Below, one piece after another: positions 15,644 through 46,295 of a stretch of DNA of 64,000 nt. The stretch comes from Vicinamibacterales bacterium (lineage in GTDB: Bacteria; Acidobacteriota; Vicinamibacteria; Vicinamibacterales; UBA8438): NCBI GenBank assembly GCA_965199675.1, contig CBDATI010000028.1:19205-83204 (forward strand). The letters run 5' to 3'. Position 1 is the stretch's first letter; every line of letters begins with the position of its first letter. Position numbers and translations under genes: made by a program. A model generated the notes under the pieces. It ran no database searches and was not told where the DNA came from. It worked only from the letters and a program-made list of their open reading frames with translations.

Positions 15644-15889
15644 ATGACCTGGCGCGATCACATCGCCGTCGATCCGCACATCTGGCACGGCAAGGCGTGC
15701 GTTCGCGGGACACGGGTCCTCGTCACCGTCATCCTCGACAACCTCGCCGCGGGTGAGTCGGCGGCCGCAGTCGCGGAGGCGTATCACGCGCACGCTCGAC
15801 GAGTTGACCCGAGCGCACCGTGGACGGCCAGCTCTGGATTGTGGACGAGCGGCGGGTTCGCGTGCGTGGGCCGGAAGCGTCATCTGTAG
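15644..15889 (+). CDS. DUF433 domain protein (antitoxin-like), C-terminus atypical
   Basis: GGGGAGGA SD 6 nt upstream of the ATG. MTWRDHIAVDPHIWHGKACVRGTRVLVTVILDNLAAGESAAAVAEAY matches the DUF433 core (dP.i..GkP.i.GTRi.V..il..la.G). After AEAY the sequence no longer follows the family consensus. Confidence 0.65.
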   Translation: MTWRDHIAVDPHIWHGKACVRGTRVLVTVILDNLAAGESAAAVAEAYHAHARRVDPSAPWTASSGLWTSGGFACVGRKRHL

Positions 15890-15944: not shown

Positions 15945-16457
15945 TCAGGTCGATGGGGCGCTGCGGTCGAGCGCGGCGAGGAAGAGGCCGATCACGCGGT
16001 CGTTGATGTGCAACGGGTTCGACACCTGCATCCGGCGCGCGATAGCGGCGGCGCGCTGACGGGTCAGCACGCCGCCCGCGACCAGATCGACCATCAGTCC
16101 GAGACCATATCGTGTCTCCACGCCGTGCCGTTCGCAGAGGCGCCGAAGCGCGCGATCGTTCGTGACGCAGGTCCACCCCTCTGCGCCGCAGACGACCAGA
16201 CAGAGGCGGTCGTTGAATGAGACGCTTGACTCTATCGCGGCTGCCTGCAGCATGCGCTCGGTCTCGACGTCGACGACCGCGATACCGAGTTCGGCACACG
16301 CCGCAGCAGTGACACCGCGCACCTCATCGAGCACCGACGGAATGATGACCACCTTCCCAACGTGCCGGCCCACGAGTTCCAACACCGACAACTCCGACTC
16401 CCGATAGTCGATGAGCACGTCGGCGTCAGCCAACAGAACGGTGCGGACGGCCGGCAT
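15945..16457 (-). CDS. PIN-like domain protein (putative nuclease/toxin partner of the upstream HTH-peptidase gene)
   Basis: 170 aa. VLLADADVLIDY (first acidic motif), IIPSVLDEV, SFNDRLCLVV, CVTNDRALRRLCERHGV are spaced as in PIN-like folds (COG2405/DUF3368-type by eye). It starts 6 bp after the stop of the 16464-17600 gene. Confidence 0.7.
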   Translation of the reverse strand: MPAVRTVLLADADVLIDYRESELSVLELVGRHVGKVVIIPSVLDEVRGVTAAACAELGIAVVDVETERMLQAAAIESSVSFNDRLCLVVCGAEGWTCVTNDRALRRLCERHGVETRYGLGLMVDLVAGGVLTRQRAAAIARRMQVSNPLHINDRVIGLFLAALDRSAPST

Positions 16458-16463
16458 CCCGCG

Positions 16464-17600
16464 TCAGCCCGTCCAGGTTCGCGCCAGGGTCCGCATCTCG
16501 TCGCGCGTGACGCGCAGGATCTCCGCAGCGCGGCCTAGCGAGATCCGTTCCGCCTCGACCGCCTGTCGAACGAGCCGTGACAGGCGATCCTCCACGAAGT
16601 CGTGACGCGAAAGCCCTGCCGGTTCCCCGGCGCGATTCCAGTTCCACGCGAACTCGCTCGTCTGCAGCGGCTCGGGTTCGTCCGCCTTCTGCAGGGTCCG
16701 GCCGAAGCGGGTGCGGTGCTGGCTCTGGAACAGCGGCCACACGTCGGCCGTCTCACGCCGCGTCGCGACGAGGCGGTAAAGCACGGTCTGGTAGCTGACC
16801 CGGAAGATGCGCTTGATCTTGAGAACACGCACCAGCAGCGGGTGTCCACTCGTTCCGTTCCAGGCCGCCAGGAACGCCGCCTCCGGCATCAGGAACTCGC
16901 TGGCGAAGATGTCTGCTTCGCGTTCGGTCTGCTTCGGAAGCTCGGTGGCTTCGCGCCGGTATTCCGCCGGGTGCAGCAGCAGGTGCCCGAGCTCATGGGC
17001 TGCGGTGAAGATCCAGCGCTCCACCGAGATCCGCTCCCATGTGTTCACCACGACCGCCGGACCGCCGTCCACCTCCCCGACGCTCAGTCCGAAGAACGAG
17101 TCGCGCCGCGTGTCGAGCAGCAGCACCTTGACCCCGTTCTCCTCCAGCAGCCCGCAGATGTCTCGAACCGGCTGATCGCCACGCATATCGACGGACCGGC
17201 GCGCCGCTCGCGCCGTCGCCGCTGGATCCCGCGGCCGATGCGCCGCCACCTCCCGGAACCGGAAGGGCGCACGCGCGTCGAGCGCCTCCTCCAGCCCGGC
17301 GTAGGCCTCCAGCCACCTGGACACCTCGGCCAGAATCTGCTCGCGCGCATGCACCCGTGCCCGCGCCCGGAACCGCACGCTCTCCAGCGGTCGGACTGGC
17401 GTGACGAGTTCCCCGACCGGCACTGCCAGTGCGGTCGCCAAACCGGCAAGCGTACGCGCCCGCGGCACAACCACCGCACGTTCGATCTTCCCTACCGCCA
17501 CCCGGGACAGCCCCGCTCTGGCCCCGAGAGCCGCCTGCGTCAGCCCGCGGTCCGCCCGCAACCGCGCAACGTTCGCCGCGATGATCGCGCCCTCCGCCAT
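16464..17600 (-). CDS. XRE-family HTH fused to ImmA/IrrE (COG2856, DUF955) zinc metallopeptidase
   Basis: Start moved to ATG 17600 (GGAAGGAGA SD). MAEGAIIAANVARLRADRGLTQAALGARAGLSRVAVGKIER is an XRE HTH. FTAAHELGHLLLH (HEXXH) plus EREADIFASEFLMPE is the ImmA/IrrE peptidase core. Confidence 0.85.
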   Translation of the reverse strand: MAEGAIIAANVARLRADRGLTQAALGARAGLSRVAVGKIERAVVVPRARTLAGLATALAVPVGELVTPVRPLESVRFRARARVHAREQILAEVSRWLEAYAGLEEALDARAPFRFREVAAHRPRDPAATARAARRSVDMRGDQPVRDICGLLEENGVKVLLLDTRRDSFFGLSVGEVDGGPAVVVNTWERISVERWIFTAAHELGHLLLHPAEYRREATELPKQTEREADIFASEFLMPEAAFLAAWNGTSGHPLLVRVLKIKRIFRVSYQTVLYRLVATRRETADVWPLFQSQHRTRFGRTLQKADEPEPLQTSEFAWNWNRAGEPAGLSRHDFVEDRLSRLVRQAVEAERISLGRAAEILRVTRDEMRTLARTWTG

Positions 17601-17886
17601 GCGTTCTCCTTCCCCCTTGACGCGGGTCGTCTGAGTAGCATTTATACGGACATTGCAACAAGGATACCTCGAAGAACAACTCAAGCACGATCCTCCCTGC
17701 CCGGTGGCGGAACGCCCGACAAGTGTCGATTCCTGACCGGCGGCGACACCGAGGTCGCCATCTGGGAGCGGCTCTGGAAGCGCCACCAGCGTCGCACGGA
17801 CGCGCCGCGCTCTCGCAGGCTCTGAGACGACCGATCGGCGCGTTACCGACAAGCTCGAGGGTCAGGCACCGGGAGTTGATATATCG

Positions 17887-17931: not shown

Positions 17932-18174
17932 ATGCTCATCAAGATCACGTCGAAGCGTCAGGTGACCTTCCCCAAGCGCGTGCTGGATGCGATGGGCGTG
18001 CGACCCGGCGACCGGCTCTCGCTCGAAGAGGGCGCTGACGGTTTCCTGCTCCGTCCCCAGCGCATCGATCTCGCCAAGTTGGCGCCGGTGCGGGACAAGA
18101 TCCAGCGGGGCCGCGGCACGTTCGACCTCCAGTCCTTCCGGAACGAGCCCCATGACCCAGCACTTCGGGATTGA
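17932..18174 (+). CDS. vapB: AbrB/SpoVT-type antitoxin (VapB/MazE-like)
   Basis: MLIKITSKRQVTFPKRVLDAMGVRPGDRLSLEEGADGFLLRP is a SpoVT-AbrB looped-hinge-helix motif (kgQvTiPk.vr..lg..pGd.l). It overlaps the following PIN gene by 23 nt. Confidence 0.8.
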   Translation: MLIKITSKRQVTFPKRVLDAMGVRPGDRLSLEEGADGFLLRPQRIDLAKLAPVRDKIQRGRGTFDLQSFRNEPHDPALRD

Positions 18175-18547
18175 CACGTCCATCCTGATGCGGCTGGTCA
18201 CCGGTGACCCGGAAGCCGACTTCGAGCGGTGTGTCGGCGCGTTGTGCGCCCTGGTCGAAGACGGGGTCGAGATCGCCGCTTCGAACCAGGTCATCGGCGA
18301 AGCGTACGTCGCCATGCAGCACCACTACGGGATCTCCAAGGCGGACGCCAGGGCCGGGCTGCGCGATGTGCTGCGGAGCGGGCTGGTCGAGGCCCTGAAC
18401 GGCCGCGCCGTGCTCGCCATCCTCGACGCGGCGGGAGGCGCGGGTCTGCTCGACCGCCTGATCGCCGACGACTACGCCCGCGCCGATCTGGCGGTGCTGA
18501 CCCTGGACCGGAAGATGGCCTCCCTGCCCAATGTTCGGCGCCTGTGA
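18152..18547 (+). CDS. vapC: PIN-domain toxin (VapC-like ribonuclease)
   Basis: Start moved to ATG 18152. MTQHFGIDTSILMRLVTGDP...SNQVIGEAYVAM...LLDRLIADDYA...VLTLDRKM has four acidic positions spaced as in VapC PIN domains. Confidence 0.8.
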   Translation: MTQHFGIDTSILMRLVTGDPEADFERCVGALCALVEDGVEIAASNQVIGEAYVAMQHHYGISKADARAGLRDVLRSGLVEALNGRAVLAILDAAGGAGLLDRLIADDYARADLAVLTLDRKMASLPNVRRL

Positions 18548-19357
18548 TGAACCCCATCGCGTACACCGAGCAGGTCGTCGGCGGCTTCCTGCGCTGCCAG
18601 CTCACCGCGTATCCATTCGCCGACCCCGGCCTCTACGCCCAGATGCGGCGGCTGCTGTCGTTCGACGAGACGCGGCAGACGCCGCTGCTGAAGGGGCCGT
18701 ACCTGACGCTGTCGCGACTGTTCCGCGAGGCGCGCCGGTGGCCGCGCTGGTGCGCGAGGGCGTGCTGCATCCGCACCTGGCGCGACTGGCGCAGCCTGCA
18801 GCGGGACGGCGGGCGCGGAGACGGCCTGTCTCATCAGCCGGCTGCGGAGCTTCTGCGGGCGCTCGCCCTCCGAGACGGTGTGCGTCGCCACGTCGGTCAA
18901 CGCGGCCGAGGCGCGTCTGCGGACGCTGCTCGCGCGGGCCGGGTTCCCGGAACCGGCGTGGCAGCGGGGCATCGATCTGGGCCGACCGCTGGGTACGACA
19001 CGCCCCGATTGCTACTTCGCGACCGATGACCCGCACGACCTCGGCGTGTGCATCTACCTCGACGGTCTCAGCCGGCACATCCACGGCAACGCGGCCACGT
19101 TCGCGCGCGATCGCCAGATCCGCGAGCAGCTCCGCGCCGCGGGTTACGCCGTCTTCGAGATCGCCGCGACCCAGTTGTCCGACCGCGGCGCGGTCACCGC
19201 GCACTTCTACCGCTGGGCGCAGGTCATCCTGGGGCGGGACCGCGCCCGGGCCCTGAGGGACGACGCGGGCTGGTTCGAGGAACGAACCGCGAACCCGCTG
19301 AAGGCAACTGTCCGTCGGGTGACCGGCACAGCACCAGTTTCGGACGAGGATGGCTGA
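18547..19357 (+). pseudogene. Remnant of a large SF2 (DEAD/DEAH-type, defence-island style) helicase: N-terminal ~115 codons with frameshifts fused by deletion to a C-terminal PD-(D/E)xK/DUF559-like endonuclease domain
   Basis: Frame a: MNPIAYTEQVVGGFLRCQLTAYPFADPGLYAQMRRLLSFDETRQTPLLKGPYLTLSRLFRE. A 1-nt loss in a G run near 18727 shifts to frame b: GAPVAALVREGVLHPHLARLAQP. Frame a resumes: GLSHQPAAELLRALALRDGV. Frame c follows: CVATSVNAAEARLRTLLARAGFPEPAWQRGIDLGRPLGTTRPDCYFATDDPHDLGVCIYLDGLSRHIHGNAATFARDRQIREQLRAAGYAVFEIAATQL. The entire helicase core is missing. ATG 18547 overlaps the vapC stop (TGATG). Confidence 0.55.
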
Positions 19358-40017: not shown

Positions 40018-40107
40018 TGGCGGAGAGAGTGGGATTCGAACCCACGGTAGAGTTTCCCCTACACACGCTTTCCAAGCGTGCTCCTTCAACCGCTCGGACA
40101 TCTCTCC
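40018..40107 (-). tRNA. tRNA-Ser (anticodon GGA), CCA encoded
   Basis: GGAGAGATGTCCGAGCGGTTGAAGGAGCACGCTTGGAAAGCGTGTGTAGGGGAAACTCTACCGTGGGTTCGAATCCCACTCTCTCCGCCA: 7-bp acceptor stem, anticodon loop TTGGAAA, long variable arm, TTCGAAT T-loop. Confidence 0.93.
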
Positions 40108-46219: not shown

Positions 46220-46295
46220 TCCTCAGTAGCTCAATTGGCAGAGCATCCGGCTGTTAACCGGAGGGTTGTTGGTTCGAGTCCAACCTGAGGAGCCA
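46220..46295 (+). tRNA. tRNA-Asn (anticodon GTT), CCA encoded
   Basis: TCCTCAGTAGCTCAATTGGCAGAGCATCCGGCTGTTAACCGGAGGGTTGTTGGTTCGAGTCCAACCTGAGGAGCCA: standard cloverleaf, anticodon loop CTGTTAA. Confidence 0.93.

Follow-up and report, generated by a model that had tools for sequence, protein, structure and literature searches.

A two-gene cassette of a fused helix-turn-helix/M78 peptidase protein and a PIN protein in a Vicinamibacterales bacterium, and its relation to bacterial defence operons

A 64,000-nucleotide stretch of a Vicinamibacterales genome (Acidobacteriota; contig CBDATI010000028.1 of assembly GCA_965199675.1), called the window below, carries on its minus strand two adjoining genes that form a tightly coupled unit, as observed in their strict pairing across phyla and their translational coupling. 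Gene A (16464..17600) encodes a protein of 378 amino acids (aa) in which an Xre-type helix-turn-helix (HTH) domain, an M78 zinc peptidase of the ImmA/IrrE/CapP-like kind and a conserved C-terminal helical domain are fused, and gene B (15945..16457) encodes a 170-aa PIN protein. We favour, with moderate confidence, the view that the pair is a mobile, self-regulated cassette of the Xre-COG2856/RmrA/CapH-CapP-fusion kind, in which A would repress transcription and restrain the PIN effector B. The HTH-M78 plus PIN architecture is not a new toxin type, having been predicted since 2009. The most useful outputs of the present analysis are the pairing statistics, the decay of B before A, the control region, an invariant RFR motif in A, and, as new context, the link to divergent defence operons together with a remnant of one in the window.

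Results

Pairing, spread and decay of the A-B unit

When one genome was scanned for each species, 79 loci (cited below by L number) with B relatives at 30-77% identity were found, hosted by Vicinamibacterales, Binatia, Latescibacterota, Myxococcota, Gemmatimonadota, Spirochaetia, Gammaproteobacteria, Nitrospirales and others. In about 75 of the 79, the neighbour directly upstream of B is an A homologue on the same strand, and the two genes are 0-8 bp apart or overlap slightly. Since order, strand and spacing are all kept in these loci, the arrangement is not due to chance. The exceptions are mostly contig edges or decayed copies; at L002 an intact A is found about 1.3 kb away from B. The identities of A and B covary across loci (r ~0.9), and none of the other genes of the window is conserved beside the pair elsewhere. 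A distant B relative (E 1e-29) also has an A-type C-terminus 6 bp upstream.

It can be seen from the hosts of the closer homologues (60-77% identity), which are Acidobacteriota, Binatia, Latescibacterota, Myxococcota, Spirochaetia, Gammaproteobacteria and Nitrospirales, that the cassette is horizontally mobile and widely transferred, with a patchy distribution. A cultured example is the copy on plasmid pRS11DPr4 of Methylomagnum ishizawai, placed between a type I restriction-modification system and parA.

The two genes do not decay equally. At 8 loci (L042, L048, L060, L061, L064, L066, L075 and L078) a frameshift or truncation has disrupted B and left A intact, and at 2 (L014 and L027) only A is disrupted, despite A being 2.2 times longer than B; by our own calculation the binomial p is about 0.002 under a per-base null. 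An excess of B-only over A-only disruption would be expected if an unopposed B were costly.

Unusual arrangements were also seen. In L071 (3527-9262, a metagenome-assembled genome of Stappiaceae) three A paralogues and two B paralogues stand in tandem within 6 kb. Protein P0381 (247 aa, from a metagenome fragment) runs in frame from the C-terminal part of A into B, and is either a natural fusion or the product of a lost stop codon. In L014 (4789-6507) a metallohydrolase gene of the 6a type, described below, replaces the first 300 codons of A, and the last 76 codons are left beside an intact B. This locus was ruled out as evidence that the C-terminus of A suffices, since the fragment has no start codon and its promoter is deleted.

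Gene A, a fused repressor-like and peptidase protein

According to the open-reading-frame list and the sequence, gene A runs on the minus strand from an ATG at 17600 to a TGA at 16466-16464, and its protein includes LTQAALGARAGLSRVAVGKIER, FTAAHELGHLLLH and EREADIFASEFLMPE. The N-terminus is conserved in 46 homologues, which supports the start codon, as does an AAGGAG box at 17606-17611. The Xre-type HTH domain (aa 8-67; 17400..17579, minus strand) was assigned by the Pfam models HTH_31 and HTH_3, and its profile matches solved Xre, DdrO and C-protein HTH structures. The peptidase core (aa 191-277; 16770..17030, minus strand) matches Peptidase_M78 (PF06114) with E 4.5e-17 and 62 bits against a cutoff of 22. 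Its HEXXH motif is encoded at 16983-16997 (H202, E203 and H206), and the third zinc ligand is E226, within EREAD. These four residues are invariant in 72 of 72 diverse homologues, and the peptidase is the most conserved domain of A (mean distance 0.275), which argues that it is under selection. More than 2800 homologues of A were found.

Among the PADLOC models, 14 RmrA models match A (E 6.3e-37 for the best, down to 2e-17), over aa 15-283 only, and matches were also obtained with capP (E 1.5e-16, aa 169-283 only) and capH (E 6.6e-5), none of the PADLOC matches extending much past aa 283. The profile of A matches the CapP structure 7t5t (E 5.7e-4), and the NCBIfam model of the spr1629-family antitoxin gives E 5e-20, far under the cutoff of that model.

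Ten residues past the HTH, in the linker, lies R76-F77-R78 (17367..17375, minus strand), and RFR is kept in 72 of 72 A homologues. CapP cuts CapH between F82 and R83, just past the CapH HTH, upon binding of single-stranded DNA (ssDNA; PMC13228613). By analogy with CapH, F77-R78 is a candidate self-cleavage bond of A.

The C-terminal domain (aa 283-378; 16467..16754, minus strand) lies outside the coverage of the RmrA and CapP models. These ~95 aa are conserved in the family with an invariant D-R-L...G-R-A-x-E-I-L...M-R...W pattern, and three helices appear in the A model at aa 339-377 (predicted local distance difference test, pLDDT, 75-85). We propose that the domain serves toxin binding or dimerisation. 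Among all open reading frames (ORFs) in the window and the 79 loci, a hidden Markov model of this region found no standalone small homologue.

Within the domain, aa 340-372 contain a sub-threshold HTH motif resembling UPF0175. When the C-termini of homologues were scanned singly, 21 of 27 matched UPF0175 at E <= 1 (best 1.9e-5), all under the cutoff and over the HTH-like core only; one homologue, P0235, has a precomputed PF03683 match. UPF0175 was found exclusively with COG2405 PINs (Matelska 2017; PMC5499597), so that reading the C-terminus of A as a cognate antitoxin domain is attractive. The idea that this domain is of the UPF0175 antitoxin type, with a COG2405/DUF3368 PIN as its partner, is nevertheless kept only as a hint, the UPF0175 match being sub-threshold and the B family giving no DUF3368 match in current Pfam. 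DUF3368 appears on B relatives only in precomputed, possibly faint, listings.

Gene B, a predicted PIN nuclease

Gene B begins at 16457, 6 nt beyond the A stop, and ends at 15945, on the minus strand. Its product has a VapC-like PIN core (aa 1-130) followed by a C-terminal helical extension, and carries LLADADVLIDY, SVLDEV, FNDRLCLVV and CVTNDRAL. The Pfam PIN model gives 26.9 bits against a cutoff of 23.6, and the family scores as PF01850, PIN_4 and PIN_9 and not as DUF3368 or DUF4411. An AlphaFold model built from a 55-sequence alignment has a pLDDT of 90.5. When this model was compared with the Protein Data Bank (PDB) by Foldseek, VapC/PIN toxins came top with probability 1.0, including Rv0301, VapC15, VapC4, Shigella VapC and 2mdt; the last, a COG2405 representative, is one among many PIN structural matches. 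The similarity to VapC is distant (Foldseek E ~1e-3, TM 0.45-0.66). Sequence searches of PDB chains with B and with its profiles were marginal only (two gave no significant match, and one gave TTHA0540 at E 0.001), so that it is the model and Foldseek on which the assignment of the fold is based.

An exhaustive profile search gave 949 clusters of the B family at 50% identity, nearly all of ~165-170 aa. In 90 family representatives (30-52% identity) the acidic quartet is kept as follows: D11 in 88, E45 in 77, D83 in 87 and D101 in 87. B is predicted to be a nuclease and is probably a toxin.

An earlier note on this DNA, made from the sequence alone, had described a 378-aa protein with an HTH and HEXXH, a 6-bp gap and a 170-aa PIN-like protein. 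All its motifs and coordinates are present, the PIN fold is borne out by model and Foldseek and the acidic residues by the 90 representatives, and the neighbourhood is conserved to the extent given above. Its further claim that B is the effector is plausible, on the strength of the PIN fold, the conserved quartet and the earlier decay of B.

It seems very improbable that B is instead harmless, a PIN protein for RNA processing or regulation, and that A is a common Xre regulator whose peptidase-like domain is degenerate. RefSeq does annotate the pRS11DPr4 pair as 'XRE family transcriptional regulator' and 'hypothetical protein', and some PIN families are not toxins (PMC5499597). However, in both enzymes the catalytic residues vary little or not at all, and the patchy spread across phyla at 60-77% identity, the plasmid copy and the repeated inactivation of B alone fit a selfish or defence module and not a housekeeping function.

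A conserved control region upstream of A

The earlier note had called 17601-17700 AT-rich, and this is indeed so (53% GC against 71.7% for the whole window). Its first part, 17601..17667 on the minus strand, is the predicted 5' control region of the A-B operon, as judged by alignment to a 5' region conserved across phyla. Comparison of ~110 nt upstream of each A homologue in loci L001-L073 revealed a layout common to several phyla: TTGACA, ~13 nt, TGnTA (an extended −10), GTCAAG ~22 nt before the start codon, and GGAGG. Each element is far commoner than in shuffles; GTCAAG, for instance, is present in 25 of 67 loci where 1.2 would be expected, the sequences being related and the test thus not independent. 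Following this layout, the minus strand of the window has a −35-like GTTGCA (17654-17659) and an extended −10-like TGCTAC (17635-17640), both of which are weaker matches, then a GTCAAG box (17616-17621) and the AAGGAG already mentioned as ribosome-binding site. The existence of a conserved promoter region upstream of A is predicted because of this conservation between loci.

The −35 core CTTGAC has GTCAAG as its reverse complement, and the two may make up a long-range inverted repeat. A terminator scan and an inverted-repeat search of the upstream region of the window gave nothing convincing. A TATCAT/ATGATA inverted repeat was considered as an operator and dropped, its covariation being inconsistent.

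Defence operons divergently upstream of the cassette

In 10 of the 79 loci a three-gene operon lies divergently upstream of the cassette. Its genes encode a metallohydrolase-like protein of ~378 aa, a protein of 760-785 aa with Prok-E2_A, ThiF (E1) and JAB domains, and a 252-aa protein without family match; this is the '6a' E2-E1-JAB ubiquitin-like system. The same operon was listed among those with which CapH/CapP-like regulators are associated, the regulators lying upstream on the other strand (Lau 2022; bioRxiv 10.1101/2022.04.27.489752).

In the window itself, the first, metallohydrolase-like gene of this operon survives as an in-frame remnant of 37 aa at 17676..17786 on the plus strand, found by tblastn and BLASTP. 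The remnant is 70% identical to the L014 protein (tblastn), and it shares 28 of its 37 residues (76%) with aa 204-240 of the L031 protein (BLASTP, E 6e-18). The rest of the 6a operon is missing from the window. The remnant indicates that the window cassette once adjoined a 6a operon that has since been deleted.

Other divergent neighbours are AriAB/PARIS at L041 (E 5.5e-199), Zorya ZacB at L032 (E 3.5e-158; a related upstream ORF in L039), PDC-S01 at L009 (E 5.6e-164; related upstream ORFs in L017, L018 and L066), a BilD-like E1 at L036 (PADLOC BilD, E 3.2e-17), an E1-E2 system at L063 (PADLOC E1-E2, E 2.5e-32) and ApeA-HEPN at L013 (Pfam ApeA_NTD1, E 8.5e-21; HEPN_Apea, E 3.8e-11). These neighbours beyond 6a lie at 2-4.7 kb in each locus, on the minus strand. 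In total, known defence genes were found divergently upstream in at least 20 of the approximately 67 loci inspected (6a in 10, PDC-S01 in 4, ZacB in 2, and AriAB, BilD, E1-E2 and ApeA in 1 each). In many or most loci the upstream neighbours are unrelated and non-recurrent, and defence genes are absent or unrecognised there. It would thus appear that many unrelated defence systems have the cassette in front of them.

This placement raises another explanation, namely that A is chiefly a stress-responsive repressor of the CapH-CapP-fusion type acting on the divergent immune operon, that B is a co-induced accessory or island stabiliser and no toxin that A neutralises at the protein level, and that the window pair is a functionless or decaying leftover. 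The geometry at the loci with defence genes is that drawn for CapH/CapP by Lau 2022, who also showed a 'vapC-like + CapH-CapP fusion' beside DISARM without calling it a toxin-antitoxin pair; A matches both capP and capH models, as the plasmid homologue matches capH (E 3e-11), and the window has kept only 37 aa of its 6a operon. We nevertheless regard this explanation as unlikely. Most loci have non-recurrent upstream neighbours and only A and B always travel together, while coupling over 0-8 bp, the decay of B first and a plasmid copy by parA are typical traits of toxin-antitoxin pairs. Furthermore, A and B of the window are intact with all catalytic residues, though the operon is lost, and proteins of the RmrA type neutralise their toxins in assays (PMC10440598).

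Relation to known systems

The cassette has the features of the Xre-COG2856 plus PIN module. Makarova, Wolf & Koonin (2009; PMC2701414) counted 60 COG2856-PIN pairs, noted that fused Xre-COG2856 genes share operons with toxins of the PIN or RelE type, and put forward a 'three-component' system. Matelska 2017 (PMC5499597) reported COG2405, DUF4411, PIN_14, PIN_20 and PIN_26 as co-transcribed with HTH plus DUF955. Three features of the module are found here, namely the same fused HTH and peptidase gene, its position directly upstream of a PIN gene, and a patchy mobile spread. These two papers (PMC2701414, PMC5499597) contain computational predictions only. B, which scores as PF01850, PIN_4 and PIN_9, could not be placed in one of their PIN clusters (COG2405, DUF4411, PIN_14/20/26). 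A difference from the 'three-component' module is that the HTH, the protease and a putative neutralising domain appear in one polypeptide.

The earlier note had placed the pair in a RosmerTA-like module with an unusual effector, perhaps an undescribed toxin variant. RosmerTA (RmrT/RmrA, including the pneumococcal Spr1629/Spr1630, or RipAB) is likewise a two-gene operon of an RmrA-like HTH plus M78 protein and a variable partner. The RmrA-like character of A was upheld (PADLOC RmrA, E 6e-37), whereas B matches no RmrT model in PADLOC, so that one half of the comparison stands. The novelty of the effector is not supported, since the pairing is described in four papers: Makarova 2009, Matelska 2017, Lau 2022, who reported a vapC-like gene and a protein resembling a CapH-CapP fusion beside DISARM, and Ernits 2023 (PMC10440598), where the ImmA/Rosmer node pairs with PIN-like domains and RmrA neutralises variable toxins.

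A stronger form of this comparison, which overlaps the reading we favour, is that the locus is a bona fide RosmerTA anti-phage system, with A as RmrA and B as a novel PIN-type RmrT, the pair alone giving abortive infection. We hold this to be possible but doubtful. The strong matches of A to 14 RmrA models, the variability of Rosmer toxins together with the NetFlax link between the ImmA/Rosmer node and PIN-like domains (PMC10440598), and the defence-island contexts of related loci are consistent with it. On the other hand, B has no RmrT or other PADLOC match, nor has the plasmid homologue any at E <= 1e-5, and current tools would not call the locus Rosmer. The RmrA models reach only aa 15-283 of A and leave out the last 95 aa, which differ; the PIN pairing is not new; and no B homologue was found among 50,697 phage genomes. 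In addition, the characterised Rosmer toxins depolarise membranes or target DnaN, whereas B is a PIN nuclease by prediction.

A shares its HTH repressor and M78 peptidase with HEXXH...E with CapH/CapP, IrrE/DdrO and ImmR/ImmA, the regulators of immune operons activated by DNA damage. The likeness to CapH/CapP extends, at the related loci with defence genes, to the position of the cassette, which stands upstream of such operons and in opposite orientation (including the 6a listed by Lau 2022), and to the invariant F-R dipeptide past the HTH, where CapH is cut. In contrast to CapH/CapP, HTH and peptidase are fused in A, a PIN gene is always co-transcribed, and the regulated operon is absent from the window. 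The domain set of CapP is also not that of A, which has no GAF domain, no recognisable CapP central HTH, and only ~95 aa beyond the peptidase. With VapBC the pair shares the PIN fold, four conserved acidic residues, antitoxin-first order and translational coupling. However, the partner of B is a 378-aa enzyme-containing protein and not a small AbrB, RHH or Phd antitoxin, and B has a C-terminal helical extension of ~40 aa and is only distantly similar in structure.

Other features of the window

The window copy is an orphan cassette in a small cluster of toxin-antitoxin genes, and in this sense an ordinary case. On the plus strand, 17932-18174 encodes an 80-aa MazE/AbrB-type protein (Pfam E 1.3e-8) and overlaps 18146-18547, which encodes a 133-aa PIN-like protein (Pfam PIN E 8e-4, under the cutoff). 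These two genes make up a second toxin-antitoxin-like pair, whose presence next to the cassette is not conserved at other loci. An 81-aa ORF (15644-15889, plus strand) with a DUF433 antitoxin-type domain (E 8e-13, covering positions 1-41 of the 56 in the model) lies convergent to the 3' end of gene B; a gene for a partner toxin was not seen, and the ORF may be truncated. A 159-aa ORF (18878-19357, plus strand) has no family match and only a weak one to PADLOC PDC-M05A (E 0.009). The genes for tRNA-Ser(GGA) (40018-40107, minus strand) and tRNA-Asn(GTT) (46220-46295, plus strand) are more than 20 kb from the cassette, and no sign was seen that they mark an island boundary.

Discussion

The mechanism that we propose for the self-regulated cassette is as follows. 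The N-terminal HTH of A would repress the A-B promoter and, where present, the promoter of the divergent defence operon. At the same time A would hold B in check; binding through the family-specific C-terminal domain is the likeliest single route, though put forward tentatively, while proteolysis of B and transcriptional control alone are less likely and about equal to each other. A stress or infection cue, which in CapP and IrrE is ssDNA, may activate the M78 peptidase, and A may then cut itself, possibly at F77-R78 just past the HTH. With repression and neutralisation both lost, the PIN ribonuclease would stop growth, and the neighbouring immune operon would be induced.

Several observations weigh against this proposal. 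Many of the loci are metagenome assemblies, and some of the frameshifts counted in the decay of B may be sequencing errors. The PADLOC models, including RmrT, gave 0 matches to B at E <= 0.1. UPF0175 (PF03683) scores 19 bits on the C-terminus of A, where the gathering cutoff is 27.9, and the current Pfam model of DUF3368 (PF11848) matches 0 of 55 and 0 of 90 members of the B family at E <= 1. The A-B distance correlation is ~0.9 for every domain of A, the C-terminus being only marginally highest, so that the interface is not located by it. No GAF domain, the ssDNA sensor of CapP and IrrE, was found in A by Pfam, and the AlphaFold model of full-length A is poor (pLDDT 53). The window's own promoter matches only weakly, and a simple sigma-70 consensus scan did not pick it up. 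Finally, no experimental study of any HTH-M78 plus PIN pair was found in the literature.

A bolder version would make A a three-in-one antitoxin-regulator, with HTH, protease and toxin-binding functions in a single chain, in which one self-cut at F77-R78, made on sensing infection or DNA damage, would both free the PIN ribonuclease and de-repress the divergent operon (6a, PARIS, Zorya or PDC-S01), so that the cassette would act as a portable trigger module inserted ahead of a variety of unrelated defence systems. In this full form the proposal is improbable, and we offer it as speculation.

The B family is large, with its 949 clusters, and its pairing with HTH-M78 proteins has been predicted since 2009. 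If the mechanism that we favour is true, the cassette would join defence of the RosmerTA type with control of immune operons of the CapH/CapP type, which are usually treated apart, and protease activation, loss of the repressor and release of the toxin could be followed in one compact protein system. The recurrent placement of the cassette before 6a E2-E1-JAB, PARIS, Zorya and PDC-S01 genes also suggests how such systems may be switched on.

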